A stretch of 64,000 bases of DNA from Candidatus Nealsonbacteria bacterium (GTDB lineage: Bacteria; Patescibacteriota; Minisyncoccia; Minisyncoccales; JANBVM01), in the NCBI GenBank assembly GCA_047456295.1, contig CP179887.1, positions 45,944-109,943 of the forward strand, read 5' to 3'. Every line of letters begins with the position of its first letter. Position 1 is the stretch's first letter. Below are positions 25,394 to 63,548 of the stretch, one piece after another. Below the pieces are notes generated by a model. The model saw only the letters and a program-made list of their open reading frames with translations, had not been told where the DNA came from and did no database searches. The position numbers were made by a program, and so were the translations under genes.

Positions 25394-25594
25394 ATGAATT
25401 TTAAAAATATTCCCATAAAAATTAATACCTTTTTTAAAGAAATCAAGGTAGAGATTAGGAAGGTTAATTGGCCAACAAGAAAGGAAACCATAAGAGATAC
25501 CTTGATTGTCATCGGGGTTTCAATAGTAGTTGCCATATTTTTAGGTGGAATAGATTTTCTCTTTACCACCTTATTAAATAGATTTATACTTTAG
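25394..25594 (+). CDS. secE: Preprotein translocase subunit SecE
   Basis: 66 aa with VNWPTRKE followed by a single TM helix. Immediately upstream of nusG. Confidence 0.85.
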   Translation: MNFKNIPIKINTFFKEIKVEIRKVNWPTRKETIRDTLIVIGVSIVVAIFLGGIDFLFTTLLNRFIL

Positions 25595-25598
25595 AAAT

Positions 25599-26144
25599 AT
25601 GCCAAAGCAAAAAATAATCCAAAAGAGAAGCTGGTATGTGCTCCATACCTATTCAGGGTATGAAGAATCTGTGGCCAAGAATTTAAGACAAAGGATTGAG
25701 TCTTTGGGTATGGAAGATAAAATCTTTAATGTTATTGTTCCCAAGGAAAAAAAGATAAAGATTAAAGCAGGCAAGAGAAAGGTGATTGAAGAAAAGATTT
25801 ATCCAGGTTATGTGCTGGTGGAAATGATTGTTACAGATGATTCCTGGTATGTTGTCAGGAATACCCCTAACGTTACTGGTTTTATCGGGGCTGGTACCAT
25901 TCCTATTCCGGTTTCAGAAAAAGAGATTAATGACCTGAAAAAGAGGATGGAGGTGAAAGAGCCCCAGTACAAGATTAAGGTTAAAATTGGTGATTTGGTA
26001 AAGATTACAGATGGTCCTTTTAAGGATTTTGAAGGCAAGGTTTCTGAGATTGATGAAGAAAAGGGGAAGATAAAGGTCTTGGTAAATATATTTGGAAGAG
26101 ACACGCCTGTTGAGTTAGATTCCCTCCAGGCCAAGAAGCTTTAA
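25599..26144 (+). CDS. nusG: Transcription termination/antitermination factor NusG
   Basis: [14 protein letters not shown] start and a C-terminal KOW domain ([18 protein letters not shown]). Confidence 0.9.
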
Positions 26145-26170
26145 TATTAAACCTATCTAATGACAAGATT

Positions 26171-26593
26171 ATGGCAAAAAAAATAAAAGCCGTCATAAAA
26201 TTACAGATTCCAGGAGGTAAAGCTACTCCTGCACCTCCTGTAGGGCCTTCTTTGGCCCAGCATGGATTAAATATTGCTGAATTCTGCAAGAAGTTTAATG
26301 ATGCAACCCAGAATCAGCAGGGAGCTAAGATTCCTGTAGTGGTTACCATATATGAGGACAAGAGTTATACCTTTAAGACAAAGCAACCCTTGATCTCTGA
26401 TTTATTGAAAAAAGCAGCTGGTATTGAGAAGGGTTCAGGAGAGCCTAACAGAAAAAAGGTGGGCAAGATTACAAAAGAACAGCTAAGAAAGATAGCTGAA
26501 CAAAAGATAGCTGATTTAAATACCGAAGACATAGAAAAAGCAATGAAGATTATACAGGCTACAGCTAAAAACATGGGAATAGAAGTTCAATAA
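26171..26593 (+). CDS. rplK: 50S ribosomal protein L11
   Basis: [26 protein letters not shown] motif. Confidence 0.95.
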
Positions 26594-26602
26594 ACAATCT
26601 CT

Positions 26603-27082
26603 ATGTTAAATTCAAGAATCAATTTGAAAATAGCAGTAATTATCCTTGGCATTGCCATAATAGGAGCATTAATTTTAATTCAGAATGAGTATTCTTTAAC
26701 CAAAAAAGAGATAGATGATTTGATTGAAAATCAGTTTGTTGATTTCCAGTATCAGAAAAGAAAAGCTGTTCAGGAAGAAACAGTATATATCATTAATAAG
26801 GGAAATGAGGACGTGCTCTACTATGAAATAGTGCCTTCTGAAGACTCAACTGTCTTTTCCTTGCTGGAGGAGTTAAGCCAGAGAGAGAATTTTGAGCTAG
26901 AATCAACCTTATATGAGGGAATGGGCGTATTTGTTGAAAGTATTGATGGTCTCAGGAATGGAACCCAAGATAAATATTGGCAATACTGGGTTAATAATGA
27001 ATTGCCCCAGGTTGCTGCAGATAAAATGCAGATTAAGAAAAATGATGTTATTGAGTGGAGATTTGAGGCTTCTACTTTTTAG
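26603..27082 (+). CDS. Membrane-anchored DUF4430-like (transcobalamin beta-domain-like) protein
   Basis: N-terminal TM helix, then GVFVESIDGLRNGTQDKYWQYWVNNE...KNDVIEWRF, the typical DUF4430 core. Confidence 0.65.
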   Translation: MLNSRINLKIAVIILGIAIIGALILIQNEYSLTKKEIDDLIENQFVDFQYQKRKAVQEETVYIINKGNEDVLYYEIVPSEDSTVFSLLEELSQRENFELESTLYEGMGVFVESIDGLRNGTQDKYWQYWVNNELPQVAADKMQIKKNDVIEWRFEASTF

Positions 27083-27108
27083 TACGTATTTAACAATCCA
27101 TAAATTAA

Positions 27109-27678
27109 ATGGACTATAAAAAGCTTTTTTTTACTATTTTAATTATCATCTTCGGAGTTATTTTTCGCATTTTTTTGAATGAAACAATAGGTATTCCTAA
27201 TTTTGAAGCAGTAACTGCTTTATCTTTGCTTTCAGGGGTGTTTGTGGGAGGTGTTTACAGTATTTTAATTCCCCTTTCCATCATGTTTTTTTCTGACCTT
27301 TATTTTGGCAATACCTTTATTTATCTTTTTACCTGGTCAGCCTTTGTCTTGATTGGAATTTCTGGTAATATATTCAAGAGGGATTCTAAACATTATTTGC
27401 TTAAAATTACAGGTTCAGGAGTTTTGTCTGTTTTATTTTTTTATTTGTGGACGAATCTTGGCTGGTGGCTGATTTCTGGGATGTATCCCATGAGTTTTTC
27501 AGGTTTGATTCAATGTTATATTGCTGCCCTTGCTTTTTTAAAGAATCAACTTATTTCCGTGATTCTTTTTGTTCCTGGTTTCAATGTTATTTTTTCTTTT
27601 CTTATTGATAAGGTTTTTTCTTCTTCTCAAAAGGTAAAAAAGCATGGAACCTTTATTTTACCCGAAATTAATCATTAA
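27109..27678 (+). CDS. Multi-pass membrane protein, possible vitamin-uptake (ECF-S-like) component
   Basis: 5-6 predicted TM helices and a PNFEAVTALSLLSG motif. Adjacent to the DUF4430 gene. Function is inferred only. Confidence 0.4.
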   Translation: MDYKKLFFTILIIIFGVIFRIFLNETIGIPNFEAVTALSLLSGVFVGGVYSILIPLSIMFFSDLYFGNTFIYLFTWSAFVLIGISGNIFKRDSKHYLLKITGSGVLSVLFFYLWTNLGWWLISGMYPMSFSGLIQCYIAALAFLKNQLISVILFVPGFNVIFSFLIDKVFSSSQKVKKHGTFILPEINH

Positions 27679-27699
27679 GATTATATTATTTTAATTTAT

Positions 27700-28266
27700 A
27701 TGATTCTTTCTGACAGAGACATCAAAAAATATATTAAAATGGGTAAGATTAAAATAAATCCCGAACCTGATTTTAAAAAACAGTTAGGTTCAGCTTCTTT
27801 AGATTTAAGACTGGGAAATGAATTCAGGGTTTTTAACCACGTAAAAAAACCGTTTATTGATACCAAAGATCCAAAGACTTTTAAGAATATAACCCATTTG
27901 ATAAAGATAAAAGATAAAGAACCTTTTGTTTTCCAGCCAGGCCAATTTATTTTAGGGGTGACCTTAGAGGAGATTTCTCTGCCCGATGGCGTGGCAGCCA
28001 GGGTTGATGGAAGGAGCAGCATTGGAAGACTGGGAATTGTTGTTCATTCCACTGCCGGACATGTTGATGCCGGATTTAGGGGAAGAATTAATCTTGAGAT
28101 GGAGAATATTGGAATGATGCCCGTTCTTTTGTATCCTGGAACAAGGATCTGCCAGTTGGTTTTTGAATTGCTTTCTTCACCAGCTGAGATTCCTTATTAC
28201 AAAAAGAAAGGGGCAAAATATTTAGGAACAAAATCCCCGGAAGAAAGCAAGCTTGAAAAAATATGA
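27700..28266 (+). CDS. dcd: dCTP deaminase
   Basis: MILSDRDI start, SLDLRLG, GRSSIGRLG and PGTRICQLVF motifs. Confidence 0.9.
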   Translation: MILSDRDIKKYIKMGKIKINPEPDFKKQLGSASLDLRLGNEFRVFNHVKKPFIDTKDPKTFKNITHLIKIKDKEPFVFQPGQFILGVTLEEISLPDGVAARVDGRSSIGRLGIVVHSTAGHVDAGFRGRINLEMENIGMMPVLLYPGTRICQLVFELLSSPAEIPYYKKKGAKYLGTKSPEESKLEKI

Positions 28267-29093
28267 ATGATTGGCCCAAGGTAGAAGGAAGATATAAAGT
28301 GGGAAACAAGACCTCTCCCATTGCTGTTTGTACCAATGCCAGTATTGATGACATAGAGATTGACCTTAAAAAAATAGCAATTATTGGAAAGTGTGTTACA
28401 GAGAACATTGGCATTGAAAAGATAATCCAGAATATAGTTTCCAATCCTAATATAAGGTATTTGATTCTTTGCGGAAAGAAATCAAAGGGTCATTTTATCT
28501 CCCAGGCAATTGAATCTTTAAAGAAAAATGGCATTGACCAAGATAAGAGAATCATTGGAGCTGCAGGCAACATGCCTTATTTAAGAAATATTGATGAAGA
28601 ATTAATTGAAAGGTTCAGGAAACAGGTAGAAATAATCAATATGGCAGGGGAGACCAACAGCCAAAAAATTGAAACAATGGTAGATAAATTATTAGAAGGA
28701 AAAACAGAGGAGTTTAAAGGTGAAGCTGTTCAAATTAAAAAAACAGAGGAGATTGAAGCTAAACCAGCAAAATGGATTGCTGACCCTAAAGGTTATTTTG
28801 TAATATCCCTTAACAATGAAAGAACTAAGATTATGGTTGATCATTATATAAAAGGGGAGATCAACAAAAGAATTATTGGCAAGAATGCCAAGGAAATCTG
28901 TGATACCATTGCCAGATTAAAACTCATAGGAGAGTTTGAACAGTCTTTGGAGCATTCCATGTATTTGGGAAGAGAACTTGAAAAAGCAGAAATAGCCTTA
29001 AGGGAAAACCTTGATTTTGAACAGGACAAGGAATTAAAAATTAAAAAGCTTAAAAAACAAGAGCCAACCAATGAATACGGTTGGTTTGATTAA
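28263..29093 (+). CDS. MtrA-like (corrinoid-protein fold) plus DUF4346 fusion protein
   Basis: WPxVEGRYKVGN...PIAVCT...TENIGIEKIIQNIVSNPNIRYLILCGKKSKGH matches the MtrA family core. The C-terminal half (DPKGYFVI...HSMYLGRELEKAE) is DUF4346-like. ATGA overlap with dcd. Confidence 0.65.
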   Translation: MNDWPKVEGRYKVGNKTSPIAVCTNASIDDIEIDLKKIAIIGKCVTENIGIEKIIQNIVSNPNIRYLILCGKKSKGHFISQAIESLKKNGIDQDKRIIGAAGNMPYLRNIDEELIERFRKQVEIINMAGETNSQKIETMVDKLLEGKTEEFKGEAVQIKKTEEIEAKPAKWIADPKGYFVISLNNERTKIMVDHYIKGEINKRIIGKNAKEICDTIARLKLIGEFEQSLEHSMYLGRELEKAEIALRENLDFEQDKELKIKKLKKQEPTNEYGWFD

Positions 29094-29871
29094 AAATATG
29101 TATCAAACAAGAATAATTGCAGCTAAAAATTTAGGTCAGGCATGGGAAAGAGCCTGTATCTTAATAATGAAAGAAGGACATAATCGTTATGTTCAGGCCC
29201 CTGAATATAAAATTGAAACAAGGGATTTGCCTTTGATGATAAAGGTGTCAGAACCTTTTTCAGAGCCAAGACTTTCTTTGAAATCCAATGTTAAAAAAGA
29301 ACAGGCTGATGACTATTCCAAAAAACTGCTTTTTGGGAGCGGAAAAGAAAAAGAAAACAGTTTTGATTATACCTATTTTTCTCGGCTTCGTTGTTATCCT
29401 GATTGCCGGGTGAGGGCTTTTTTGCCCAGTATTACAGAATCAAAAGAAGAACTGGAACAGGAGGTAAGAAAGGTTTCTCCTGACGGTAAATGTCTGGTTG
29501 AGAGAATTGACCAGGTGGAAAAAGCAATTAAGATTTTAAAGAAAGATCCAACCCGTCGGACAGTTGTTCTTCATACCTGGATTCCTTACAGGGATTTGAT
29601 GAAATTTGGACCTAAGAGAGAAGACACCTCTTCTCCCTGCGTGGTTTTGGTTTATCCTCAACTGGTTGATGGGAAATTGCACATGTTTATTGTAATGAAA
29701 ACCAATGATTTATATAATGCCTGGCCTGAGAATGCCTATGCCCTTACCAATCTCCAGAAACATATAGCTGATGAATTGGGGGTTGAAACTGGAACCTATA
29801 CCCATTTTTCTGTGAGTATGCATATTTATAAAGACATGTTTGAGGAAGTAAAAAGGAAATTTAATCTTTAA
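29071..29871 (+). CDS. Thymidylate-synthase-like protein 3 (Asn at the specificity position; RR dyad present)
   Basis: DPTRRTVVLHTW, SPC(190)VV, MK(210)TND(213), WPEN(221) and SMHIYKD. Overlaps the upstream gene; an alternative ATG lies at 29098. Confidence 0.7.
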   Translation: MNTVGLIKNMYQTRIIAAKNLGQAWERACILIMKEGHNRYVQAPEYKIETRDLPLMIKVSEPFSEPRLSLKSNVKKEQADDYSKKLLFGSGKEKENSFDYTYFSRLRCYPDCRVRAFLPSITESKEELEQEVRKVSPDGKCLVERIDQVEKAIKILKKDPTRRTVVLHTWIPYRDLMKFGPKREDTSSPCVVLVYPQLVDGKLHMFIVMKTNDLYNAWPENAYALTNLQKHIADELGVETGTYTHFSVSMHIYKDMFEEVKRKFNL

Positions 29872-29909
29872 GAATAAAAAACTTAATATTAGGGAATTAA
29901 GTTTTAGGA

Positions 29910-29933
29910 GTTCGAATCTCGTCGTCCCCACCA
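29910..29933 (+). repeat. tRNA-Asp 3'-end fragment with CCA (att-like relic)
   Basis: GTTCGAaTCTCGTCGTCCCCaCCA compared with the genuine GTTCGAgTCTCGTCGTCCCCg at 11913-11934. No 5' half of a tRNA lies upstream. Confidence 0.75.
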
Positions 29934-29940
29934 TTTCGGG

Positions 29941-29963
29941 CCCGAGCATTTGGCTCGGGTTTT
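29941..29963 (+). terminator. Intrinsic terminator
   Basis: CCCGAGC-ATTTG-GCTCGGG followed by TTTT. Confidence 0.7.
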
Positions 29964-30043
29964 AGGTTTGACAAAAACTAAAAGATGGGGTAAAAGTAGA
30001 TAGATTAAAATTACAATTAAAAGTGTGGAGGTTAAGGATAAAA

Positions 30044-30370
30044 ATGTTTAGGAAAAAAAGGAAAAAAACAGAAATTAAAGAAAGAAAGGAAATTAAAGAG
30101 ACTAGAAAAATTGAGAAGGTAGCTATAAAAACAAATGAATTTACCAAGGGCACCTCAATCAAAATCTTCTTTCCCAATAGAGAAGAAGATAACATATGGC
30201 TTACTTCTGTAGATAAGCGCTTGAAACCTTATTCTGAATCTCAGATTAGAAGAATCTGGTCCGATTGTCAGAATCAGATAAAAGCAATGGATTCTGAGAT
30301 TCCTGTGGTATTTCATGAAATAGTTCGAAAACTTAACGAAGCTATTAAAAAGAGAGGAATAGATATCTGA
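30044..30370 (+). CDS. Small hypothetical protein with Lys-rich N-terminus
   Basis: ORF downstream of TTGACA (29968-73). ATG at 30044 preferred over the GTG at 30023. No motif recognised. Confidence 0.4.
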   Translation: MFRKKRKKTEIKERKEIKETRKIEKVAIKTNEFTKGTSIKIFFPNREEDNIWLTSVDKRLKPYSESQIRRIWSDCQNQIKAMDSEIPVVFHEIVRKLNEAIKKRGIDI

Positions 30371-30464
30371 ATAGCTAAATGTTGGTGGTTTCTAGATTTA
30401 TTTTATATAGGGAAAAAAGAACTATATCGAGAAAATAATTATTTTTTCTTTCTTTTTTCCGCTT

Positions 30465-30504
30465 TTTTTCAAGCCCATAATCATAGATTGTGGTTTTGAA
30501 AAAG
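30465..30504 (+). repeat. Motif X copy 2
   Basis: TTTTTCAAGCCCATAAtcatagatTGTGgTTTTGAAAAAG. See copy 1 at 12276-12313. Confidence 0.6.
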
Positions 30505-30531
30505 AAAATTAAAGGAAAAGAAGATTAGAAC

Positions 30532-30561
30532 AAAAACTGTCTATTAGTATAGGCAGTTTTT
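30532..30561 (+). terminator. Intrinsic terminator
   Basis: A-run, CTGTCTA-TTAGTA-TAGGCAG hairpin, then T-run. Confidence 0.65.
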
Positions 30562-30588
30562 GTGTTATAATATGTGTATAATAAAACA

Positions 30589-31206
30589 ATGGAGAAGAAT
30601 ACTTTTCCTGGAAAATTTATTGTTTTTGAAGGATTGGATGGTTCAGGGCAATCAACCCAGTCAGGACTTTTAAAGGATTTTTTATTGAAAAAAGGATATA
30701 ATATTCTTCTTGCAAAGGAACCTACCTTAGATTCTGAAGCTGGGAGAAAGATCAGAAAAGTTTTGAGGAAAGAATTAAAAATACCTCCCCAGGAACTACA
30801 AGAATTGTTTGTTCAAGATAGAAAGGAACATCTGGAAAAAACCATTATTCCTGCTTTAAAACAAGGGAAAACAGTTATTTCTGACCGTTATTTTCTCTCT
30901 TCCCTTGCTTATGGAACATCTGAAGGCCTTGATTTGGAATGGTTAATTGAGATTAACAGCCAATTTCTTTTTCCTGATATAATTTTCCTTTTAAAGGTGA
31001 ATCCTGAAACTTGTATTAAAAGGGCTAAAAAGAGAAATATCAAAATTACCCTTTTTGAAGAAAAAGAAAAGTTAGCTATGGTTTGGCAAACTTATGAAAT
31101 CTTGCCAGCTCGATTTGAGAATATTTATGTTATCGATGGAGAAAAATCCATTGAAAAAGTTTTTGAACAAATAAAGAATATATTAAATAAAAAGCTAAAT
31201 TTATGA
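30589..31206 (+). CDS. tmk: Thymidylate kinase
   Basis: FIVFEGLDGSGQST P-loop and DRYFLSSLAYG. TGTGTATAAT ends 6 nt before the ATG at 30589, so the transcript looks leaderless. Confidence 0.85.
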   Translation: MEKNTFPGKFIVFEGLDGSGQSTQSGLLKDFLLKKGYNILLAKEPTLDSEAGRKIRKVLRKELKIPPQELQELFVQDRKEHLEKTIIPALKQGKTVISDRYFLSSLAYGTSEGLDLEWLIEINSQFLFPDIIFLLKVNPETCIKRAKKRNIKITLFEEKEKLAMVWQTYEILPARFENIYVIDGEKSIEKVFEQIKNILNKKLNL

Positions 31207-31877
31207 AAAAGATAAACAAAAAAAATATTGCCAGAATCATTGACCACACCAATATCAAGCTTGAAGCAAAAGCCAAAGACATTAAAAAGACCTGTCAGGA
31301 GGCAAAACAGTATGGTTTCAGGTCGGTATGTGTCAATCCTAAATGGGTGAGATTAGCCAAGAAACAACTAGAGGGAACCAAGGTTAAAATAGTTGTTTTA
31401 ATTGATGCTCCCATGGGTTTAAGCTCTCATCAAAAAAGAATGAGAATATGTAAAAAAACAAAGAAACATGGGGCAGATGAACTGGATGTAGTAATGAATA
31501 TTGTTGATTTAAAATATGGAAGATATGATAAGGTTTTAAAAGATTTGAAAGGAATTTGTAGTATTTTACCCACAAAAGTAATCATTGGTTCAGGTTATCT
31601 GACAGATGACGAGATTAAGAAAGCTTCTAAGATTGTTAAGAAAGCTGGAGCTTTTTGTGTTAAAACAGCAACCTCAAAAGACCCTTTGGAAAATCGAGAA
31701 ATAAAAGAAAAAGTCTATCATCTGAAAATAATGAAAAAATCAGCTCCTGGTCTTTCAATTAAAGCCTCAGGAAAAATCAGAACCTTAAGCGATGTTAAGG
31801 CAGCTGTGAAAGCTGGAGCTGACATTATTGGTACCAGTTCCGGGATAAAGATAATAAAACAAATCTCTAAAAGATAA
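31203..31877 (+). CDS. deoC: Deoxyribose-phosphate aldolase
   Basis: IDHTNIK, VCVNP, Schiff-base VKTATS region and IGTSSG tail. Confidence 0.85.
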   Translation: MKKINKKNIARIIDHTNIKLEAKAKDIKKTCQEAKQYGFRSVCVNPKWVRLAKKQLEGTKVKIVVLIDAPMGLSSHQKRMRICKKTKKHGADELDVVMNIVDLKYGRYDKVLKDLKGICSILPTKVIIGSGYLTDDEIKKASKIVKKAGAFCVKTATSKDPLENREIKEKVYHLKIMKKSAPGLSIKASGKIRTLSDVKAAVKAGADIIGTSSGIKIIKQISKR

Positions 31878-31883
31878 TCCTTT

Positions 31884-33356
31884 ATGGAAAAATCTCGATT
31901 CCAGCCCGTGATAGGATTGGAAATACATGTTGAGTTAAAAACAAAAACCAAGATGTTTTGTTCTTGTTTGAATAACCCTGATGAAAGGCATCCCAATGTT
32001 AATGTATGTCCCATATGCCTGTCGCATCCAGGAACACTTCCAGTAATAAATAAGGAAGCTGTGAAAAAGGTTATAAAAACAGGCTTGGCATTGAATTGTG
32101 AAGCATCAACAGCTTCAAAATTTGATAGAAAGAATTATTTTTATCCAGATCTGCCAAAGGGATATCAAATATCTCAGTATGACATGCCTCTTTGTAAAAA
32201 GGGATTTTTGCAGATAGGGAAGAGGAAGATTAAAATAACTAGGGTTCATTTAGAAGAAGATACAGGGAGACTTATTCATCCTCAAGGTAAAGATTACAGC
32301 CTGGTGGATTTTAATCGGGCAGGCATTCCTTTAATGGAATTGGTTACTGAACCTGACCTCACTTCTGCTTTGGAAGCGAGAAGGTTTGCCCAAGAGCTTC
32401 AACTGATTTTTCGATATCTTGGTGTGTCTGATGCTGATATGGAAAAAGGACAAATGAGGGTAGAAGCTAACATCTCACTCTCTCCTAAAGATGCAAAATC
32501 CAGGACTCAACCTTTAGGTAACAAGGTAGAGGTTAAAAACCTTAATTCTTTTAAAGCAGTAGAGAGAGCAATTGATTACGAGATTGAAAGACAGGCAAAA
32601 ATTTTACAAGGAGGAAAGAAAGTTTTACTAGAAACAAGAGGCTGGAATGCTGTAAAGGAGATAACATTTTCTCAAAGAAAAAAAGAGGAAGCTCATGATT
32701 ACCGTTATTTCCCTGAACCTGATTTACCTTCACTTCATTTCACAAAAGAAGATATTAAAGGAATCAAGAGCGGGATTCCTGAGCTACCTCAAGCCAGAAG
32801 AGAAAGGTTGGCCAAAGAATATAAACTGGGTAAAGAAGCAGTTGAATTTTTCGTTCAAAATAAAGATTTGGGAGAGTATTTTGAAAAGGTGGTTAGCGAA
32901 TTTGAATCAAGGATATCCAGGGAAAAACTCTCTGCTTTAATAACTTTGGCAACCAATTATATGATTAGTGATTTACAGGGGTTATTAAAAGAAGCCGGTA
33001 TTTCTGATGAAGATTTTTTGATTACTCCGGAAAACTTTGCCGAATTCATTTCTTTATTAGAGGGTAAAAAAATATCAAGCAAAATTGCCAAGACCGTTCT
33101 TTCAGAGATGTTTGAAACCGGAGCTGATCCTTCTCAAATTATTGAAGAAAAAGGATTGTCTAAGATAACCGATGGGGTTGTGATTACAGATACTGCCAGT
33201 GAAGTAATTTCAGAGAATCCAGAAGCAGTTAAAGATTATAGAAAAGGAAAGAAAAATGCCCTTGAGTTTTTAATAGGGCAGATGATGGTAAAAGAAAAAG
33301 GAAGAATAGATCCTGAGACTGCTCGAAAAGAAATAGAGAAAAAGCTCAAAACTTAA
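31884..33356 (+). CDS. gatB: Asp/Glu-tRNA amidotransferase subunit B
   Basis: VIGLEIHVEL, KMFCSC, DRKNYFYPDLPKGYQISQ and a C-terminal GatB_Yqey domain. Confidence 0.9.
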   Translation: MEKSRFQPVIGLEIHVELKTKTKMFCSCLNNPDERHPNVNVCPICLSHPGTLPVINKEAVKKVIKTGLALNCEASTASKFDRKNYFYPDLPKGYQISQYDMPLCKKGFLQIGKRKIKITRVHLEEDTGRLIHPQGKDYSLVDFNRAGIPLMELVTEPDLTSALEARRFAQELQLIFRYLGVSDADMEKGQMRVEANISLSPKDAKSRTQPLGNKVEVKNLNSFKAVERAIDYEIERQAKILQGGKKVLLETRGWNAVKEITFSQRKKEEAHDYRYFPEPDLPSLHFTKEDIKGIKSGIPELPQARRERLAKEYKLGKEAVEFFVQNKDLGEYFEKVVSEFESRISREKLSALITLATNYMISDLQGLLKEAGISDEDFLITPENFAEFISLLEGKKISSKIAKTVLSEMFETGADPSQIIEEKGLSKITDGVVITDTASEVISENPEAVKDYRKGKKNALEFLIGQMMVKEKGRIDPETARKEIEKKLKT

Positions 33357-34252: not shown

Positions 34253-34262
34253 CTTCCAGGAA

Positions 34263-35588: not shown

Positions 35589-35658
35589 ATCATTTTCTTT
35601 ATAACAGAAAAACAGCCCCTGACAAGGCTGTTTTCTATTATTTTTCAAAACTTTCCCT

Positions 35659-51301: not shown

Positions 51302-51307
51302 AAGATT

Positions 51308-55238: not shown

Positions 55239-55291
55239 AGTGTTTAATGTATTATAAAATAAAAAAAGGATTAATTTAAATCTTTAAAATT

Positions 55292-55594
55292 ATGACTTAT
55301 TTAATATTAGGTGCAGGTTTTTTAGGAGGAGTAGTGAGGGGATTAATGGGATTCGTAAAACACCAGTTTTCATATAAAAACGTGCCTTTTAAATTAGGGT
55401 ATTTTTTAACAATGGTTTTTCTGTCTGGCGTGATCGGGTTTTTATCAGTTTGTGCAGTTAAAAATACTGGTTTTACCTTAGAGGGAGTGTTTAGTCCAGC
55501 TTTAAGTTTTATTGTAGGTTATGCAGGAGGTGATTTTATAGAGAATATTTATAAAATCATTATTAAAAAATCATCATTGTATTCTGAAAAATAA
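55292..55594 (+). CDS. Small membrane protein (100 aa)
   Basis: Three predicted TM helices. No motif recognised. Confidence 0.45.
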   Translation: MTYLILGAGFLGGVVRGLMGFVKHQFSYKNVPFKLGYFLTMVFLSGVIGFLSVCAVKNTGFTLEGVFSPALSFIVGYAGGDFIENIYKIIIKKSSLYSEK

Positions 55595-55610
55595 TTGCTT
55601 TTTAGCTTTA

Positions 55611-56048
55611 TTATTTTTCCTCTGTCCACTTTTTTGCCTTTTCCACAGTAGGAAATAATTCTACTTCTATTGATGGTTTGTTTAACTTTAAGAAAAACGA
55701 ACCAATTATTCTTGCCATTGGATTTTTATAAACTAACGCAACTTTTTTTCTAACATGTTTCGCAATCTCTGGACTTTCATTAACAAATCTTCTTGCTTCC
55801 AGACTTACTTTTTCTATCTCTGAAATATCTACAATTATTCCTCGTCTTTGGAGATTCTTCGTTATTTTAATTCCTGCTTCAGTTATTCGTTCTACTTCTT
55901 CTTTGTCTATTTTCCCCCACATTCTTATCATCATTATATTGTCTTCAATCCAAGTTTCGCTACTCCTTGTTTTAATTGATTCTTTTTTCATATTTTTATA
56001 AATCCGTTTGACTGTTTTCATTTCGACATCTTTAATAACGACAAACAA
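55611..56048 (-). CDS. Hypothetical protein (possibly STAS/SpoIIAA-like fold)
   Basis: 145-aa ORF on the opposite strand to its neighbours. Only weak fold-level resemblance. Confidence 0.4.
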   Translation of the reverse strand: MFVVIKDVEMKTVKRIYKNMKKESIKTRSSETWIEDNIMMIRMWGKIDKEEVERITEAGIKITKNLQRRGIIVDISEIEKVSLEARRFVNESPEIAKHVRKKVALVYKNPMARIIGSFFLKLNKPSIEVELFPTVEKAKKWTEEK

Positions 56049-56085
56049 TTAATTTTAAAAAATCTTCCTTTTAAAGAAAGGAAAA

Positions 56086-56160
56086 GTTCGAGTCCTACTA
56101 CCGGAGCAAATTAAGTTCAAAAATCGCCAATCAGGCGGTTTTTTGATAAAATGAACTATA
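56086..56160 (+). repeat. Junction module J4
   Basis: AGTTCGAGTCCTACTACCGGAGCA (tRNA-3'-like), then AAATCGCCAATCAGGCGGTTTTTTGATAAAAT, with the ATG 8 nt after the -10. Confidence 0.7.
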
Positions 56161-56577
56161 ATGACAAGAAGAATTGCTATTTTTGCCCCTTCTGGAGTTG
56201 GTAAATCAACACTAATTAAGATTGCCTTAAAACAAGGGATAAAGGCTTATGATTTTGAAGATTTCTCTTCTCAAGAAAGAATAAAAAAAGCTCAAGAAAT
56301 TCTCAAGAAGGATTTTAATGACATTGTATTGTTTAATGCGGGAGATTTACAAACTAAAGATTTCCCGTTTGATGTTGAACTGGTATTGCTTTTACCTCCT
56401 AAAGATATTTATTTGAAGCGTTTAAAAAAGCGCGACAAATTAAATCCAGAGAAAAAAGGCCAACAAGGGAATATGAAGTATGAGATATTTTTTTAAAAAA
56501 AGAACATTTTTCATAGAATTATTAAAGATACAGGAACAGCGGATGAAATTTTAGATAAGATATTAAAAAGTTTATGA
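56161..56577 (+). pseudogene. P-loop kinase-like gene, frameshifted/decayed copy of 57269-57685
   Basis: The first 95 aa align with the paralogue (RRIAIFxPxGVGKSTLIK). The frame breaks after NPEKKGQQ near an A/T homopolymer. The C-terminal FHRIIKDTGTADEILDKILKSL* resumes in another frame and ends in ATGA overlap with ppa. Confidence 0.6.
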
Positions 56578-57044
56578 ACATAAAAGTTTTTATTGAGAAT
56601 AAAGCAGGGTCTAATCAAAAAAATATCTATGATGAAAAAACCTTGCAATATAAGAAAACTGTAATAATCTCAAGGAAATATCCATATCCCTATGGTTTCG
56701 TTTTGAATACCACAAGTGGGGATGGTGATAATGTAGATTGTTTTGTGTTAACAAACAAAAAACTTAAAACTGGTGAAATCGTTGAGTGTAAACCTATTGC
56801 CATGATGGAGCAAATAGAGTCTTATTCTGCAGAGCCAGGAATAGAGGAAGAAGACCACAATGTCTTAGCTGTTTTAGAGGGTGAAAGTTTTGAAATAGAC
56901 GATATATTAAAGAATAAACTGTCTGAATTTGTTTCACATGCCTTTGACCATTTACCAGATAAAAAAGTTAAAGTAGGAAATTTCTTAGATGAAAAAAAGA
57001 CTATAGAGTATATAGAAAAATGTAGAGATGCTATTAATCTTTAA
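56574..57044 (+). CDS. ppa: Family I inorganic pyrophosphatase
   Basis: YPYPYGFVLNTTSGDGDNVDCFVL active-site motif. Confidence 0.8.
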   Translation: MNIKVFIENKAGSNQKNIYDEKTLQYKKTVIISRKYPYPYGFVLNTTSGDGDNVDCFVLTNKKLKTGEIVECKPIAMMEQIESYSAEPGIEEEDHNVLAVLEGESFEIDDILKNKLSEFVSHAFDHLPDKKVKVGNFLDEKKTIEYIEKCRDAINL

Positions 57045-57158
57045 ATTCAGGTTCGAACATTATCCTATTAAATTAGGTTAATCCTTGAAATAGTCTTTAA
57101 ATCTCTAAGCTTTTTCTCAATTTCTATCCAATCAATAGTTCTAAATTGGTAAATTTTC

Positions 57159-57268
57159 CCAAAACCAAGTTCTAATATTGTACCACCCCCGGAGCAGGCT
57201 AGTGCTCGGTTCAAGTGACCGAGACGCATCAAATCGCCTTATAGGCGGTTTTTTGGTAAAATCGAAAT
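57159..57268 (+). repeat. Junction module J5
   Basis: CCCAAAACCAAGTTCTAAT...CCCCCGGAGCA, then hairpin CTCGGT-TCAAGTG-ACCGAG, then AAATCGCCTTATAGGCGGTTTTTTGGTAAAAT-CGAAAT-ATG. Confidence 0.7.
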
Positions 57269-57685
57269 ATGAAAAGAAGAATTGCCATCTTTGGTCCTCC
57301 TGGTGTTGGTAAGTCAACCCTAATTAAGCTCGCTATAAAAAGAGGAATAAAGGCCTTTGATTTCGAAGATTTTCCTGAGGAAGAAACATTAAGGCGAGTC
57401 AAAGAAATCTTCAAAAAAGTTCCTGATGACATTGTATTGTATGGTGCGGCTGGCTTACAGACTTATGATTTCCCACAGGATGTAGAACTGGTGTTGGTTC
57501 TGCCACCTAAAGATATTTATTTAGAGCGTATAAAGGAGCGGGATACAGTAAATCCAGCTAAAGTAGGCCAGAACCATTTGGAATGGTATGATGGCTATAC
57601 AAGTACTAAGAATCGTTATCATAAAGTTATTAGTGAGACAGGAAGTCCCAATGAAGTTTTAGATAAAATATTAGAAGATTTATGA
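57269..57685 (+). CDS. Small P-loop kinase-like protein (138 aa)
   Basis: Walker A GPPGVGKST. ATGA overlap with the downstream S66 peptidase gene. Confidence 0.6.
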   Translation: MKRRIAIFGPPGVGKSTLIKLAIKRGIKAFDFEDFPEEETLRRVKEIFKKVPDDIVLYGAAGLQTYDFPQDVELVLVLPPKDIYLERIKERDTVNPAKVGQNHLEWYDGYTSTKNRYHKVISETGSPNEVLDKILEDL

Positions 57686-58653
57686 AAAGTGTTACCCCAT
57701 CAAAACTTAGAAAAGGAGATGAGATAAGAGTCATAGCTCCTGCTAAAAGTTTCAAGACCTCCTTCACAGAAGAGAGAATGGCAACCGCAATGAAAAGGTT
57801 TGAAGAAATGGGTCTGAAAGTTAGTTTTGGAAAACATGTCTACGAACGGAATGAATTTGAATCCACAACTATTGAACATCGACTAGAAGATTTACATGAT
57901 GCTTTTTCAGACAACAACGTAAAAGGGATTTTAACTGTTCTTGGAGGTACCCATTCCAATCAGCTTTTGAAGTATATAGATTACGACCTCATCAGTAATA
58001 ATCCTAAAATCTTATGCGGACTATCGGACATCACTTCCTTGGCAAATGCAATACATGCTAAAACAGGACTGGTGACATATTCTGGACCACACTTCACGTT
58101 GTTTGGTGTAAATAAAGCAATTGACTATACTGTCGATTATTTTAAGCAATGTTTTTTTACAAACGAATCAATAGACGTACAAGCTTCGGAGCATTTTTGT
58201 AATGATAGATGGGACAGTGAAGAAATTCCAAACGATGGAATGTGGCTCATCAATCGTGGTGAAGCTCAAGGAAAAGTTCTCGGCGGTAATATGGTCACTT
58301 TCAATCTTCTGCAAGGGAGTGAATACTTTCCTGATATCTCTGATTCAATCATCTTTGTGGAAGACAACGCAAAAGAAAGTATTCGCGCCTTTGAAAATCA
58401 CTTACAATCACTTATCAACCAACCAAATTTTTCCAAAGTGATAGGGTTAGTAATTGGCAGGTTTCAAGAAGGTACTGGAATGACAAAAAAGTTACTTACA
58501 CAAATCGTTCAAACAAAAAAAGAATTTAACAATTTACCTGTTATTGCAAATGTGGATTTTGGACATACAATCCCAATGATTACTTTCCCCATCGGAGGCG
58601 AATGCAAAATTGCAGCAAAGGACGATCCTAGGATTAAGATAACCAAACACTAA
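57682..58653 (+). CDS. S66-family LD-carboxypeptidase / MccF-like serine peptidase
   Basis: LRKGDEIRVIAPA start, nucleophile elbow CGLSDITSL and C-terminal DFGHT motif. Confidence 0.75.
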   Translation: MKSVTPSKLRKGDEIRVIAPAKSFKTSFTEERMATAMKRFEEMGLKVSFGKHVYERNEFESTTIEHRLEDLHDAFSDNNVKGILTVLGGTHSNQLLKYIDYDLISNNPKILCGLSDITSLANAIHAKTGLVTYSGPHFTLFGVNKAIDYTVDYFKQCFFTNESIDVQASEHFCNDRWDSEEIPNDGMWLINRGEAQGKVLGGNMVTFNLLQGSEYFPDISDSIIFVEDNAKESIRAFENHLQSLINQPNFSKVIGLVIGRFQEGTGMTKKLLTQIVQTKKEFNNLPVIANVDFGHTIPMITFPIGGECKIAAKDDPRIKITKH

Positions 58654-58832
58654 TTATGGACAAAATGAAACAAGAAAGCACGGTCAATTTGATTATATAA
58701 AAAGCATTGGATGCTACCTAGACAGTGTGTGAACCGACATCAATATCCTTGTATAGTTCAAGAACGCGTACCGATGCAGCAAGCGGAAGCGATTGAAATT
58801 TTAAAGACTATTTTATCTAAAGACCATTAAAA

Positions 58833-58989
58833 CAGGTTCTAACCTCGTCCAGCCCCCGGAGTCAGCTTGTGCTCGGTTCGAGGGACCGAGACACTTTCGG
58901 TTCGAATCCTAACCCCACAGATGGTAAAATCAAGCTTGAAAGAAGCTTGCTTTTTTATTAAATTTAGGGAAAGGTTAAAATAGTGACTT
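58833..58989 (+). repeat. Composite junction region (two tRNA-3'-like segments, shared hairpin, terminator, -10 box)
   Basis: CAGGTTCTAACCTCGTCCAGCCCCCGGAG; CTCGGT-TCGAGGG-ACCGAG; GGTTCGAATCCTAACCCCACA; TGGTAAAATC; CAAGCTT-GAAAG-AAGCTTG followed by T6; TAAAAT 8 nt before the ATG at 58990. Confidence 0.6.
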
Positions 58990-59925
58990 ATGGAGATAAA
59001 AAACACAAAACCATCTTTTCGTTGTGTGTTACATGGAAGTTTCCGCAAATACTGGGATTTAATTAAAAGAACACATCGTATCTTTACTGAAGCCGGTATA
59101 GAAGTTTTGGCGCCTCGTGAAACAGAAATAACTTCTTCTACAGAAGGCTTCGCATTTTTAGAAGGTGAAGAAGATAAAGACCCTCGGATGGTTGAGTTGC
59201 TATATCTGCATAATCTTAAACGATTAGGGGAAAACGGTTTTAGTTATTTTGTAGATCCAGAAGGATACATAGGCAAAAGTGCATCTTATGAACTTGGCAT
59301 TGCACAAGTTACAAATATAAGGTGCTTCTTCTTCGATACCCCAAGGGACCACCCAGCTTATATTCATAGAAATGCTATTTGGAAACCTGAAAACCTCACT
59401 ACATTTATACGAGAGAAAGGAAGATTACCTGAGCCTCAAGTAGAGCCGGACAAACAAAAGATTCATAAGCTTTGGGAAGATTTAATGGTACCTGGTTCTG
59501 TAGTAGCTGCGGGAGGCATTATTGAGTATGACTCTGATAAAAAAGAGAAAGAAATTCTTTTAGTAAAGACTCATAAGTGGAAAGGACGATATTCGATTGT
59601 GGGGGGTAAGCTTCGCAGAAATGAAAGACTTGAAGATGCTTTACTTAGAGAAGTTAAAGAAGAAACAGGATTGGTAGGAAGGGTTGGAGAACATCTTTGC
59701 ACTTTTGACCAGATAAAAAACTCTGGTTATTACTTGCCTGGAATACAACATATTTTTGTTGATAATGTAGTTCATGTTAGAAGTAAACACGTTCGTTTGA
59801 ATGAAGAAGCAGAAGATTATATTTGGATACCAGCACGAATTGCGCTTCGTGAACTTTCAATAGAACCAAATGCTCGTCATACACTTCAATTATATGCTGA
59901 CAGCTTTTCTGTGTTAAGTAACTGA
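58990..59925 (+). CDS. Fusion protein: nucleoside 2-deoxyribosyltransferase/DNPH1-like N-domain plus Nudix hydrolase C-domain
   Basis: N-domain GKSASYELGIA resembles the NDT-family catalytic Glu motif. C-domain has the Nudix box GGKLRRNERLEDALLREVKEETGL. Confidence 0.6.
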   Translation: MEIKNTKPSFRCVLHGSFRKYWDLIKRTHRIFTEAGIEVLAPRETEITSSTEGFAFLEGEEDKDPRMVELLYLHNLKRLGENGFSYFVDPEGYIGKSASYELGIAQVTNIRCFFFDTPRDHPAYIHRNAIWKPENLTTFIREKGRLPEPQVEPDKQKIHKLWEDLMVPGSVVAAGGIIEYDSDKKEKEILLVKTHKWKGRYSIVGGKLRRNERLEDALLREVKEETGLVGRVGEHLCTFDQIKNSGYYLPGIQHIFVDNVVHVRSKHVRLNEEAEDYIWIPARIALRELSIEPNARHTLQLYADSFSVLSN

Positions 59926-59934
59926 TTTATAAGA

Positions 59935-60026
59935 CAGGTTCTAAAATCGTTCGTCCTTCGGAGCTAAAAAATCGCTAAATAGGCGATTTTTTGATAAAAT
60001 AAACAATATAAGTAAAAAATATTAAT
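59935..60026 (+). repeat. Junction module J6
   Basis: CAGGTTCTAAAATCGTTCGTCCTTCGGAGC followed by AAATCGCTAAATAGGCGATTTTTTGATAAAAT. Confidence 0.65.
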
Positions 60027-60653
60027 ATGGCTTTAATCAATAACCTAATCCAACAAGGTTGGTTAAAAACACCTAAAATTATTAAGGCTTTTAAAGAAAT
60101 CAAAAGAATTGATTTTTTGCCTGAAGATTCAAAAAATCTGGCTGAATTAAATGAACCCCTACCAATAGGATATGGACAGACAATATCTCAACCATTGGTT
60201 GTAGCTTTTATGATAGAACACCTCCAACCTAAACAAGGCCATAAGATTTTAGATATTGGTTCAGGTTCAGGCTGGACAACAGCCTTGTTGTCTTACATTG
60301 TAGGACCCAAAGGAAAGGTAATAGCCATTGAAGTTATTCCAGAATTAAAGGAGTTTGGAAAGAAAAACGTATCAAAATACAACTTTATACAAAAAGGAAT
60401 AGCAGAATTTATATGTGCAGATGGTTCAAAAGGGTATGAAATAAAAGCCCCTTTCGACAACATCTTAGCCTCAGCTTCAGCCCAGGAAATTCCTCAATCC
60501 TGGAAAGAACAATTGAGGATAGGTGGCAGTATTGTAACCCCTATTAAGTCTTCCATCTGGGTTTTCACCAAAAAATCAGAAAAAGACTTTGAGGAACGGG
60601 AATATCCTGGTTTTGCTTTTGTACCACTTATAACAAAGAATGAAAACACATGA
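60027..60653 (+). CDS. pcm: Protein-L-isoaspartate O-methyltransferase
   Basis: GYGQTISQP motif and SAM motif I ILDIGSGSGW. Confidence 0.85.
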   Translation: MALINNLIQQGWLKTPKIIKAFKEIKRIDFLPEDSKNLAELNEPLPIGYGQTISQPLVVAFMIEHLQPKQGHKILDIGSGSGWTTALLSYIVGPKGKVIAIEVIPELKEFGKKNVSKYNFIQKGIAEFICADGSKGYEIKAPFDNILASASAQEIPQSWKEQLRIGGSIVTPIKSSIWVFTKKSEKDFEEREYPGFAFVPLITKNENT

Positions 60654-61690
60654 AAGAGACTAATAAATCAACAATCTTTGTTTTTTGTTTTCTTGTTTTT
60701 TTTATATTTATCTGGCAACAGATTTATCTGCCTTTAAATTCTTCTGATACTGAAGATAGATTATTTTTAATTGAAAGAGGTCAGAATCTTTTTCAAATTT
60801 CTGGAAATCTGGAAAAACAAGTGATAAAGGACAGGTTTTCGTTTAATCTTTATGTGTTTTTAAAAGGCGGTGCAGGAAGGCTTCAGGCAGGGGAATATGT
60901 TTTTAATCCTTCAATGAGCATTGCAAGGATTGCTGATAAAATAATTTCTGGTGATGTTGCAAAAGAAACCATATTGATTCCCGAAGGATGGAATTTAAAA
61001 GACATTGCCTGGTATCTGGAAAACAAAGGAATGTTTCAGGCAGAAGAACTTTTTGAATTAGTGGGTTTTCGCTTGATTGATTACTCCCACAATAGTGATT
61101 TGCCAGAACTCAAGGATTTTAGTTCAGATCATGATTTTTTAACTGATAAACCCAAGAATATAGGATTGGAGGGTTATCTTTTTCCTGACACCTATGAAAT
61201 AAAAAGGAATAGCAGTTTGGAAGAGATTGTTAGGAAAATACTGGATAATTTTGGCAAGAAATTAAGTGGAGAATTAAGGGAAGAAATAAAAAGACAGGAA
61301 AAAACAATCTTTGAAATAATAACAATAGCTTCTTTAATAGAAAAAGAAGTTAAAACACCTGAAGAGAAAAAAATAGTTTCTGGAATCTTATGGAAAAGAT
61401 TGAAAAACAAAATACCTTTGCAGGTTGACGCTACCATAAACTATATTACTGGTAAAAAAACAACAAAGGTTTTAATACAAGAAACCAAGATTGATTCTCC
61501 TTATAACACCTATAAATATGGAGGATTACCTTTGGGTCCCATCTGCAACCCTGGAATTGAAAGCATTATATCAGCCCTCTATCCTGAAAGCAGTGAATAT
61601 TCTTATTATCTGTCTACTTCTGAAGGAGAAACCCTTTTTAGTAAAACCCTGGAAGAACATAATTTAAAAAAAGCTCAGTATCTTAAATAA
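60650..61690 (+). CDS. mltG: Endolytic murein transglycosylase MltG (native copy)
   Basis: ASLIEKE, VDATINY and YNTYKYGGLPLGPICNPG motifs. Confidence 0.85.
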   Translation: MKETNKSTIFVFCFLVFFIFIWQQIYLPLNSSDTEDRLFLIERGQNLFQISGNLEKQVIKDRFSFNLYVFLKGGAGRLQAGEYVFNPSMSIARIADKIISGDVAKETILIPEGWNLKDIAWYLENKGMFQAEELFELVGFRLIDYSHNSDLPELKDFSSDHDFLTDKPKNIGLEGYLFPDTYEIKRNSSLEEIVRKILDNFGKKLSGELREEIKRQEKTIFEIITIASLIEKEVKTPEEKKIVSGILWKRLKNKIPLQVDATINYITGKKTTKVLIQETKIDSPYNTYKYGGLPLGPICNPGIESIISALYPESSEYSYYLSTSEGETLFSKTLEEHNLKKAQYLK

Positions 61691-61694
61691 AATC

Positions 61695-62327
61695 ATGAAT
61701 AGAGTTTTGGTATTATTTATCATTGCTGCTATAATAATAACAGGATTTTTAGCTTATAATCACTTAATCAAAAAACAAGTTTATATGCCACAGGATAATA
61801 AAAAAGCTGTAATAATTATATCTTTTCGTAATTTTAGAGACGCAGAATATTTCATTCCTAAAGAAATTTTAGAAGAAGCAGGTGTTGAGATAAAGACTGC
61901 TTCAAATAAAATAGGATTAGCTATCGGGTCAGATGGAGGAGAGGTAAACATAGATTTGCTGGTTTCTGACATAAATATAGGTGAATTTGATGCAGTGGTA
62001 TTTATTGGGGGTCCTGGCTGTCTTACCAGTTTGGATAATGAACAATCATATAACATAGCAAGAGAGGCAGTTTCTCAAAACAAACTTCTTGCCTCAATTT
62101 GTATTTCCCCTGTTATCTTAGCTAAGGCTGGTGTGTTGGAAGGGAAAAAGGCTACTGTATGGAGTTCTCCTATGGATAAAAGTGCGGTTAAGACCCTGGA
62201 AGAAAAAGGTGTCCTTTACCAGACAGAGCCTGTGGTTGTTGATGGAAAGATTATTACTGCTAATGGTCCTGCTGCTGCCAAGGGTTTTGGCCAGGCTATA
62301 ATTGAAGGGTTGACAAAAAGTTATTAA
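61695..62327 (+). CDS. Membrane-anchored DJ-1/PfpI-family protein
   Basis: N-terminal TM helix, nucleophile elbow ASICISP and GGPG motif. Confidence 0.75.
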   Translation: MNRVLVLFIIAAIIITGFLAYNHLIKKQVYMPQDNKKAVIIISFRNFRDAEYFIPKEILEEAGVEIKTASNKIGLAIGSDGGEVNIDLLVSDINIGEFDAVVFIGGPGCLTSLDNEQSYNIAREAVSQNKLLASICISPVILAKAGVLEGKKATVWSSPMDKSAVKTLEEKGVLYQTEPVVVDGKIITANGPAAAKGFGQAIIEGLTKSY

Positions 62328-62346
62328 AAATATATATTGAAATATC

Positions 62347-62497
62347 CACAGACAGCAGGTTTATCCTCTTAGATAGGAGAGGATATCTAATGAGTAAAGT
62401 AAATCCTGCCGAGGATACCAGATATCTCTGGTAGAGTAGGTAATAGGTAAGAGATAAAATCCTTAAGTCTGTGATATGCACAGATTTTTGTTTTTTT
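62347..62497 (+). promoter_or_regulatory. Candidate rplJ (L10) leader with terminator/antiterminator alternative
   Basis: CACAGAC (62347-53) can pair with GTCTGTG (62467-73), enclosing about 110 nt of internal hairpins. The same GTCTGTG can instead pair with CACAGA (62479-84), which is followed by TTTTTGTTTTTTT. Confidence 0.45.
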
Positions 62498-62503
62498 AAT
62501 ATC

Positions 62504-63016
62504 ATGGCAAAATCTAAAGAACAAAAGAAAAAAATATTAGAGGAATTAAAAGAAAATATATCTAAACAAAAAACACTGGTTTTTATTGATTTTACGGGTT
62601 TGAAAATGGAAGATATGTTTGGCTTAAGAAAGAAATTAAAGAAAGCTGATGCTCAATTAAAGGTTGCTAAAAAAACCTTAATTCAGTTAGCTTTAAAACA
62701 AAGCGGTTTAAAAACAGATGTAAAAAAAATAAAGGGAGAATTGGGTTTGGTGTTTGGATATAAAGATGAGATATCTCCTGTAAAGGTGGTTCATGAGTTT
62801 TCCAGAGAAAATCCTTGTTTGAAGATTTTAGGAGGATTCTTTGAAAATGAATTCAAAGAAGCTGAAGATTTTATAGCTTTAGCTCAGCTTCCTTCAAAAC
62901 AAGAGCTTTTAGCAAGATTATCTGGGAGTTTGGCAGCTCCAGTAGTAAATTTTGTTAGGGCTTTACAATACAATTTAAAAGGTCTAGTTTATATATTATC
63001 AACAATTAAAGAGTAA
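62504..63016 (+). CDS. rplJ: 50S ribosomal protein L10
   Basis: MAKSKEQKKKILEEL start. The ORF-track start at 62471 lies inside the leader hairpin. Confidence 0.9.
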   Translation: MAKSKEQKKKILEELKENISKQKTLVFIDFTGLKMEDMFGLRKKLKKADAQLKVAKKTLIQLALKQSGLKTDVKKIKGELGLVFGYKDEISPVKVVHEFSRENPCLKILGGFFENEFKEAEDFIALAQLPSKQELLARLSGSLAAPVVNFVRALQYNLKGLVYILSTIKE

Positions 63017-63026
63017 TAATTAAAAT

Positions 63027-63548
63027 ATGGCTGAAGAAACAAAAAAAGAAGAAATAAAAGAGGAAATAAAGAAAGAAGAAAAAAAGGAAGAGGTAAAGAA
63101 AGAAGAAATAAAAGAAAAAGCTAAAGAAGAAAAGAAAGAAAAAAAAGAAACTCCTGTTAAGGTTCCTGCAAAATTTAAAAAGCTCATAGAAGAGATTGAA
63201 AAAATGAGTGTTTTAGATTTAGCAGAACTGGTCAAAATTTTAGAAAAGAAATTCGGCGTTTCAGCTGCTCCTCAGGTAGTGGCTGTAGCTGCCCCTGCTG
63301 GAGCTAAAGCTGCCCCTGTGGAAGAAAAGAGTGTTGTCAATATTGTTCTTACTGCTGTAGGAGCCAAGAAGATTGAAGTTATTAAAGCTGTAAGAGACGC
63401 AACTCAAAAAGGATTGAAAGATTCAAAAGATTTGGTTGATGCCGTGGCTTCAGGTCCCCAGACAGTTAAAGAGAATGTAAAGAAAGAAGAGGCTGAAGAG
63501 ATTAAAAAGAAATTTGAGGCAGCTGGTGCAAAAGTTGAGTTGAAATAA
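63027..63548 (+). CDS. rplL: 50S ribosomal protein L7/L12 with ~45-aa Lys/Glu-rich N-terminal extension
   Basis: The canonical part starts at [31 protein letters not shown]-terminal domain reads [24 protein letters not shown]. Confidence 0.9.

Follow-up and report, generated by a model that had tools for sequence, protein, structure and literature searches.

The canonical locus of most bacteria runs tuf-(rpmG-tRNA-Trp)-secE-nusG-rplKAJL-rpoBC, and in Escherichia coli the secE-nusG, rplKA and rplJL-rpoBC genes form separate units. The L10(L12)n leader is best known from Firmicutes, and in Bacillus subtilis the L10 leader acts by transcription attenuation. Here we describe how this cluster is arranged in a window of 64,000 nt (the whole stretch of DNA that was analysed) from a Candidatus Nealsonbacteria bacterium (contig CP179887.1), where it is split into three distant pieces and where rplA, the gene for ribosomal protein L1, is missing from its slot. 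The rplK and rplJ units have been described as two separate operons, and in Bradyrhizobium diazoefficiens and Actinomyces israelii other genes are inserted between rplKA and rplJL (bioRxiv 10.1101/2025.04.14.645983). Within the Candidate Phyla Radiation (CPR), one report states that all members of the OD1-L1 group lack L1 (PMC5220378, citing Brown et al, 2015). An analysis that included 69 complete CPR genomes confirmed this again (bioRxiv 10.1101/2022.01.07.475337), and the closed 1.16-Mb genome of Nealsonbacteria DGGOD1a also has no L1 (bioRxiv 10.1101/2022.04.20.488981).

The comparisons below indicate that the window very probably comes from an L1-less member of the Parcubacteria (OD1-L1; Paceibacteria/Nealsonbacteria-like), and that its fragmented ribosomal-protein region was inherited lineage-wide rather than created by a local event. 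Gene identities were assigned by Pfam on the open reading frames (ORFs) of the window, with NCBIfam equivalog models in agreement for L11, L10 and L12, and tRNAs were placed by ARAGORN and Rfam. These assignments bear out the three pieces proposed in an earlier reading of the same DNA (the sequence-only reading), all encoded on the forward strand. The first, at 25.4-26.6 kb, consists of secE (25394-25594; PF00584, E=1.3e-20), nusG (25599-26144; PF02357 and KOW) and rplK (26171-26593; L11, PF03946 and PF00298; TIGR01632, 197 bits). The second, at 51.0-51.3 kb, holds rpmG (50983-51147; L33, PF00471, E=1.7e-19) and tRNA-Trp(CCA) (51228-51301). The third, at 62.5-63.5 kb, is formed by rplJ (62504-63016; L10, PF00466; NF000955, 144 bits) and rplL (63027-63548; L7/L12, PF16320 and PF00542, with TIGR00855 matching residues 51-173).

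The slot that rplA would occupy (26594-26602) is a 9-nt intergenic gap in which neither a profile hidden Markov model (HMM) nor tblastn finds an L1 remnant, and it is followed by a DUF4430 gene, as the sequence-only reading had stated. That reading had also reported no L1 gene in the window, and dedicated searches agree. Queried by tblastn with the L1 proteins of E. coli, Thermus thermophilus and B. subtilis, the window gave no L1 match (best E=2). Six-frame translations were also searched, using --max, with a profile HMM of 44 L1 sequences, of which ten are Parcubacterial; the best match of this HMM in the window (E=3, 7 bits) lies within the deoC ORF, and it found no match in a contig that extends the window by ~5 kb (L082), in any L1-less relative or in 24 rplJ loci without an upstream rplA. 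Both methods thus revealed no hidden or degenerate rplA in the window, in its extension or in the L1-less relatives. Neither rpoB nor tuf (EF-Tu) was found in the window, and the S10-spc cluster, where CPR genomes lack L30 between rpsE and rplO, lies outside it. These negatives are meaningful because the same queries readily detect L1, rpoB and tuf in canonical non-CPR loci.

A synteny comparison with relatives shows that the split order recurs across Parcubacteria species. An L11 scan of species-representative genomes yielded 80 loci, which were annotated by tblastn. Among them the non-CPR loci (including Chloroflexota, Acidobacteriota, Cyanobacteria and Bipolaricaulota) follow the order L33-SecE-NusG-L11-L1-L10-L12: L11-L1 is followed by L10 and/or L12 wherever the downstream flank suffices, L33 and SecE are usually present upstream, tuf lies just upstream of rpmG in loci with enough flank, and rpoB comes after L12 where the flank allows. 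About 45 Parcubacteria loci instead read (pheT-)gyrB-secE-nusG-rplK, none with L33 upstream or with L10/L12 downstream, and the order pheT-gyrB-secE occurs in nearly all of those with sufficient upstream flank. Only ten keep rplK-rplA (L026, L028, L036, L040, L041, L042, L056, L058, L077 and L081; L028 is an Uhrbacteria metagenome-assembled genome, MAG), and even there rplJL is not downstream. An L10 scan of metagenomes gave 35 loci, 24 of which (L083-L106) have rplJ without an upstream rplA and none of which has rpoB downstream.

In a neighbour-joining tree of NusG and L11, the ten L1-bearing Parcubacteria form a basal grade and all 36 L1-less species form one clade. The window, represented in the tree and in ORF clustering by a locus from the same organism (L001), is nested deep within that clade, together with the Nealsonbacteria-labelled MAGs L015, L027 and L031, and the fit to an L1-less Parcubacteria subgroup suggested by the sequence-only reading is therefore upheld. 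A basal L1-bearing grade and a single L1-less clade are what would be expected if rplA was lost once, long ago, from a cluster that had already broken up, and a single loss is the parsimonious reading that these sequences suggest.

The best surviving alternative, though an unlikely one, is that rplA has moved elsewhere in the genome, perhaps beside rpoBC, so that only this 64-kb window is without it. The window is a fraction of the genome, and rpoB and tuf must lie elsewhere, which shows that relocation of cluster genes does occur in the lineage. However, relocation is argued against by the nesting of the window in a 36-species clade in which the slot is empty throughout, by the lack, in every relative, of an L1 gene less than 10 kb from rplK or rplJ, and by the complete or closed genomes of the group that are reported to be without L1 (PMC5220378; 10.1101/2022.01.07.475337; 10.1101/2022.04.20.488981). 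Clade membership and the published closed genomes lead us to infer that the remainder of this genome likewise has no L1.

The genes downstream of the empty slot point to how rplA may have been lost. Following rplK and the gap, the window carries DUF4430 (26603-27082, +) and DUF6580 (27109-27678, +), both identified by Pfam, and then a deoxythymidine monophosphate (dTMP) module (27700-33356, +) consisting of dcd, an MtrA-like/DUF4346 gene, thymidylate synthase (thyA), an unassigned ORF, tmk, deoC and gatB. In the L1-bearing loci L028, L041, L056 and L081, rplA is followed by dcd/comEB, thy, tmk, glyA and gatB; in L1-less loci the same dcd/comEB-thy-tmk-glyA-gatB module lies directly 3′ of rplK, often only 8-49 nt away. 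The same module after rplA in one group and after rplK in the other, the short gaps and the lack of any remnant suggest that rplA was excised cleanly, and once. An ORF of ~180 amino acids found right after rplK in many relatives was considered as a divergent L10 or L1 and rejected; its HAE...PCxxC motifs identify it as dCMP deaminase. Across relatives (L002-L049) the post-rplK slot is taken by dcd (dCTP deaminase) in some and by comEB (dCMP deaminase) in others. The thymidylate synthase of the window (in the region 27700-29871), which adjoins the MtrA-like/DUF4346 pterin-binding protein, is nearest to the methanogen/archaeal-type model TIGR03283 but scores under its cut-off, and two further short thymidylate-synthase-like ORFs lie at 14770-15396 and 16139-16789.

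The DUF4430-DUF6580 pair has a different history. When the first three ORFs after rplK were clustered across 38 L1-less relatives, both proteins grouped only with their own copies in L001. The pair appears to be a recent insertion, specific to this species lineage, between rplK and dcd, one that entered an old junction rather than breaking the cluster, because in the nearest species (L002, 85% L11 identity) rplK stands directly before dCMP deaminase.

It could be argued, more generally, that the splits are recent, genome-specific rearrangements for which accessory elements or repeats at the breakpoints are responsible, and the sequence-only reading had indeed placed the breakpoints in such regions. 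The DUF4430-DUF6580 insertion exactly at the 3′ junction of rplK would fit, as would a 4.3-kb segment (55.6-59.9 kb) that L083 and L086 lack and that is flanked by a repeated intergenic hairpin motif. We consider this explanation very unlikely. These insertions adjoin or separate the pieces but did not make the breaks, the gyrB|secE and rplK(A)|nucleotide-module junctions occur in both L1-bearing and L1-less Parcubacteria, and no transposase or integrase is found at any junction. The proposed association with accessory or repeat-bearing DNA found little support: the flanks are conserved housekeeping modules (pheT-gyrB before secE, the dTMP module and gatB after rplK, rpsP-KH-trmD before the tRNAs, and PCMT-YceG-DJ-1 before rplJ), the junctions are common to dozens of species, and DUF4430-DUF6580 is the only lineage-specific insertion at any of them. 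The only repeat near a junction is a coding array in rplL rich in lysine and glutamate (K/E-rich); the others are unrelated intergenic motifs. The DNA between the pieces is likewise core housekeeping (miaA, miaB, thrS, dnaE, mltG-like YceG, rnhB, nusB, rnc, rpsP, a KH protein and trmD).

Of the long contigs in the L10 scan, the closest two, L083 (70% L10 identity) and L086 (59%), share the second and third pieces and what lies between them. Both read trmD-tRNA-Tyr-tRNA-Thr-rpmG-tRNA-Trp-membrane ORF-HlyD-ABC-FtsX-ORF-PCMT-YceG-DJ-1-rplJ-rplL, and L083 runs on into truD. The sole difference from the window is the extra 4.3 kb. This segment (55611-59925) encodes DUF7793 (minus strand), inorganic pyrophosphatase, an LD-carboxypeptidase (LdcA) and a NUDIX protein, as well as a pair of small paralogous P-loop ORFs (56161-56496 and 57269-57685) with 75% DNA identity. 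Related intergenic elements lie at 12462, 13471, 17189, 56114, 57231 and 59962, three of them in the 55.6-59.9 kb segment; each comprises a hairpin, AAATCGCC...GGCGATTTTTT, followed by GATAAAAT/TAGAAT some 20-30 nt before an ATG, and they resemble terminator-plus-promoter cassettes.

The physical order of the pieces was checked against contigs of the Logan assembly of run DRR463593. Three contigs 100% identical to the window cover positions 19651-36593, 49688-57186 and 58865-64000; the one over the rpmG block was retrieved via TrmD, as the exact L33 protein had no record, and the last is L082. Together they reproduce gyrB|secE, rplK|DUF4430, trmD|tRNAs-rpmG-tRNA-Trp|HlyD, DJ-1|rplJ and rplL|truD. 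An assembly or binning chimera, raised in the sequence-only reading as a possible source of the splits, is extremely improbable: a 77-nt direct repeat (42698/46235, 91%) does lie between the first and second pieces, and Logan contigs end near repeats, so that long-range linkage of the pieces comes from the window's own assembly, but all split-defining junctions are present base for base in the separate assembly, dozens of other species and metagenomes have these junctions too, and the content of guanine and cytosine is uniform along the window, at 30-40%. Chimerism is thus excluded for all split-defining junctions. The 77-nt repeat itself (42698-42774 and 46235-46311) is a duplication of the start of rnhB, covering its first codons and the region upstream. 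The two copies bracket 3.5 kb with three genes on the minus strand, namely a second YceG/MltG paralogue (442 amino acids) and two ORFs without a Pfam match; judged by its length, Logan contig 5764 appears to stop near the first copy.

According to the interpretation that we favour, inheritance of an anciently fragmented region, events would have proceeded in three steps. In an early Parcubacterial ancestor the supercluster would have been broken at no fewer than three junctions, yielding pheT-gyrB-secE-nusG-rplK-rplA with the dTMP module, trmD-tRNA-Tyr-tRNA-Thr-rpmG-tRNA-Trp, and rplJ-rplL with its own promoter and L10 autoregulatory leader. Next, rplA would have been cleanly deleted in the ancestor of one large clade, leaving rplK abutting dcd or comEB. 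Finally, DUF4430-DUF6580 would have been inserted recently at that junction in the lineage of the window. The order of these events (break-up, rplA deletion, DUF insertion) is deduced rather than observed. We lean slightly towards the view that the break-up came before L1 loss, as a rare genomic change of ancient date that is common to the Parcubacteria, with rplA by then already the last ribosomal gene in a gyrB-secE-nusG-rplKA unit next to dTMP-synthesis genes and uncoupled from rplJL, which would have retained its own feedback through the L10 leader. This rplA-terminal arrangement before the loss is apparently undescribed in the literature searched.

Several points weigh against the favoured interpretation. 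The readable sequence of the genome amounts to ~69 kb, including the extension in L082, which leaves a small probability of an rplA copy elsewhere. The single loss is read from a two-protein neighbour-joining tree without bootstrap or other support values. The Logan assembly may share the reads of the window; the assembler differs, but the sample need not be independent. The L10 leader of the window scores 1.1 bits below the Rfam gathering threshold, and the proposed borders of transcription units derive from the spacing of genes, from consensus scans and from comparison with E. coli and B. subtilis.

The breaks appear to respect such borders, and the rplJ-rplL piece provides the clearest case. 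A promoter-like site, TTGACA-17-TATATT (62310-62338, +; 11 of 12 positions, a consensus match only), lies ahead of a predicted L10 leader (62328-62501, +; RF00557, E=6.8e-6, with 42.9 bits where the gathering score is 44), whose 174 nt align to the family end to end. An Rfam scan of the whole window at the gathering threshold returned tRNAs only; the leader surfaced just in a relaxed local scan. It carries the AGACAGCAGG...CCUGCCGAGG helix, a motif that aligns across relatives, and a terminator-like hairpin with a T-run (62465-62487) lies shortly 5′ of the rplJ start. We place that start at ATG 62504 because the ORF beginning at GTG 62471 overlaps the leader hairpin and an independent gene call in L082 gives 170 amino acids. 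RF00557 is also found directly 5′ of rplJ in 11 related loci, at 45.4-68.2 bits, at or above the gathering score, and this Firmicute-type attenuator leader thus appears widespread in Parcubacteria. The copy in the window is distinguished by a 35-nt insertion in its first hairpin.

From these sequence signals rplJL is probably a self-contained, autoregulated unit, so that the break ahead of rplJ would sit at an operon border, and the rplA|rplJ break falls where the rplK and rplJ operons are known to meet (bioRxiv 10.1101/2025.04.14.645983). By analogy with E. coli and B. subtilis, and from spacing and consensus scans, the three pieces would be separate transcription units, with the tRNA-Trp|secE and rplL|rpoB breaks likewise falling between units. 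Downstream, truD occupies the canonical rpoB position after rplL, as the sequence-only reading had noted; its 5′ part (63633-64000, +) runs off the window, and L082 contains a gene call of 460 amino acids with PF01142. The product of rplL has a 50-residue K/E-rich N-terminal extension, encoded by a tandem array that has degenerated (63033-63150). An acidic or K/E-rich extension of 15-70 amino acids stands ahead of the dimerisation helix in almost every related CPR L12 (L083-L111), and a larger L12 has been mentioned for CPR bacteria (bioRxiv 10.1101/2022.01.07.475337).

Upstream of the first piece, pheT (19778-21808, +) and an intein-containing gyrB (21860-25378, +), both identified by Pfam and both conserved upstream neighbours of secE in Parcubacteria, occupy the place of rpmG and tRNA-Trp. 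Only 15 nt separate the gyrB stop from the secE start and 26 nt separate nusG from rplK, the latter too short to hold a leader. Because of these spacings gyrB, secE, nusG and rplK are probably co-transcribed, with no space for a leader. The gyrB product is 1172 amino acids long, with the intein (PF14890, Intein_splicing) between the Toprim and GyrB_C domains; gyrB matches of similar length (~3.5 kb) occur in L011, L016 and L021, whereas most relatives show ~1.5 kb plus a short C-terminal match.

The rpmG-tRNA-Trp piece is embedded downstream of rpsP-KH-trmD, following tRNA-Tyr(GTA) (50720-50805, +) and tRNA-Thr(GGT) (50892-50966, +), both placed by ARAGORN and Rfam. After tRNA-Trp, a small membrane ORF and then MacAB-like HlyD/ABC/FtsX genes stand in place of secE, in an order identical to that in L083 and L086. 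The usual spot of tuf, between tRNA-Thr and rpmG (50966-50983), is empty, a fourth break in the supercluster that had gone unmentioned in the earlier reading. Elsewhere in the window, two full-length MreB/Mbl paralogues (3471-4469 and 8267-9310) enclose holB-like, frr, rseP-like and class II aminoacyl-tRNA synthetase genes.

That this Parcubacteria subgroup has lost L1 has been on record since 2015, with confirmation from closed genomes, and the result presented here is mainly documentation. Its useful part is negative: neither misassembly nor recent rearrangement accounts for the split cluster. Synteny gives the sequence of events as break-up, then a single clean rplA deletion, then DUF4430/DUF6580 insertion, and the gyrB-secE and rplK-dcd/comEB junctions offer handy synteny markers for the clade; if the break-up indeed preceded L1 loss, the arrangement could be used to delimit and root the L1-less clade. 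The rplJL unit of these CPR bacteria also appears to retain a recognisable L10 autoregulatory leader. For the function of an L1-less ribosome, the window gives no new handle.

Compared with the systems described to date, the split order itself (gyrB-secE-nusG-rplK, an autonomous rplJL and the dTMP module where rplA would stand) has no description in the literature searched. The closest match is the OD1-L1 group, including DGGOD1a: in each case a CPR/Parcubacteria organism lacks the L1 gene at its expected place, and the L11 and NusG proteins of the window group with those of Nealsonbacteria-, Gribaldobacteria- and Paceibacteria-labelled MAGs without rplA after rplK. There is no substantive difference; DUF4430-DUF6580 at the junction is specific to the organism of the window. 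Bradyrhizobium diazoefficiens and Actinomyces israelii share the break between the rplK and rplJ operons, but they keep rplA and their pieces are adjacent, whereas in the window these are 36 kb apart and rplA is gone. The predicted leader resembles RF00557 in its position directly 5′ of rplJ, its conserved AGACAGCAGG/CCUGCCGAGG helix and its terminal hairpin with a U-run; it differs in the 35-nt insertion and the sub-threshold score (42.9 versus 44), and its role in CPR bacteria is putative. With the canonical locus the window shares the same genes, strand and internal order within each piece, and a leader ahead of rplJ. It differs in being broken at four points, namely tRNA-Thr|rpmG (no tuf), tRNA-Trp|secE, rplK|rplJ (no rplA) and rplL|rpoB, with the pieces spread over 38 kb in the order B-A-C, where A is rpmG-tRNA-Trp, B is secE-nusG-rplK and C is rplJ-rplL. 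The split gene order is thus a descriptive character of the lineage and not a new kind of system.

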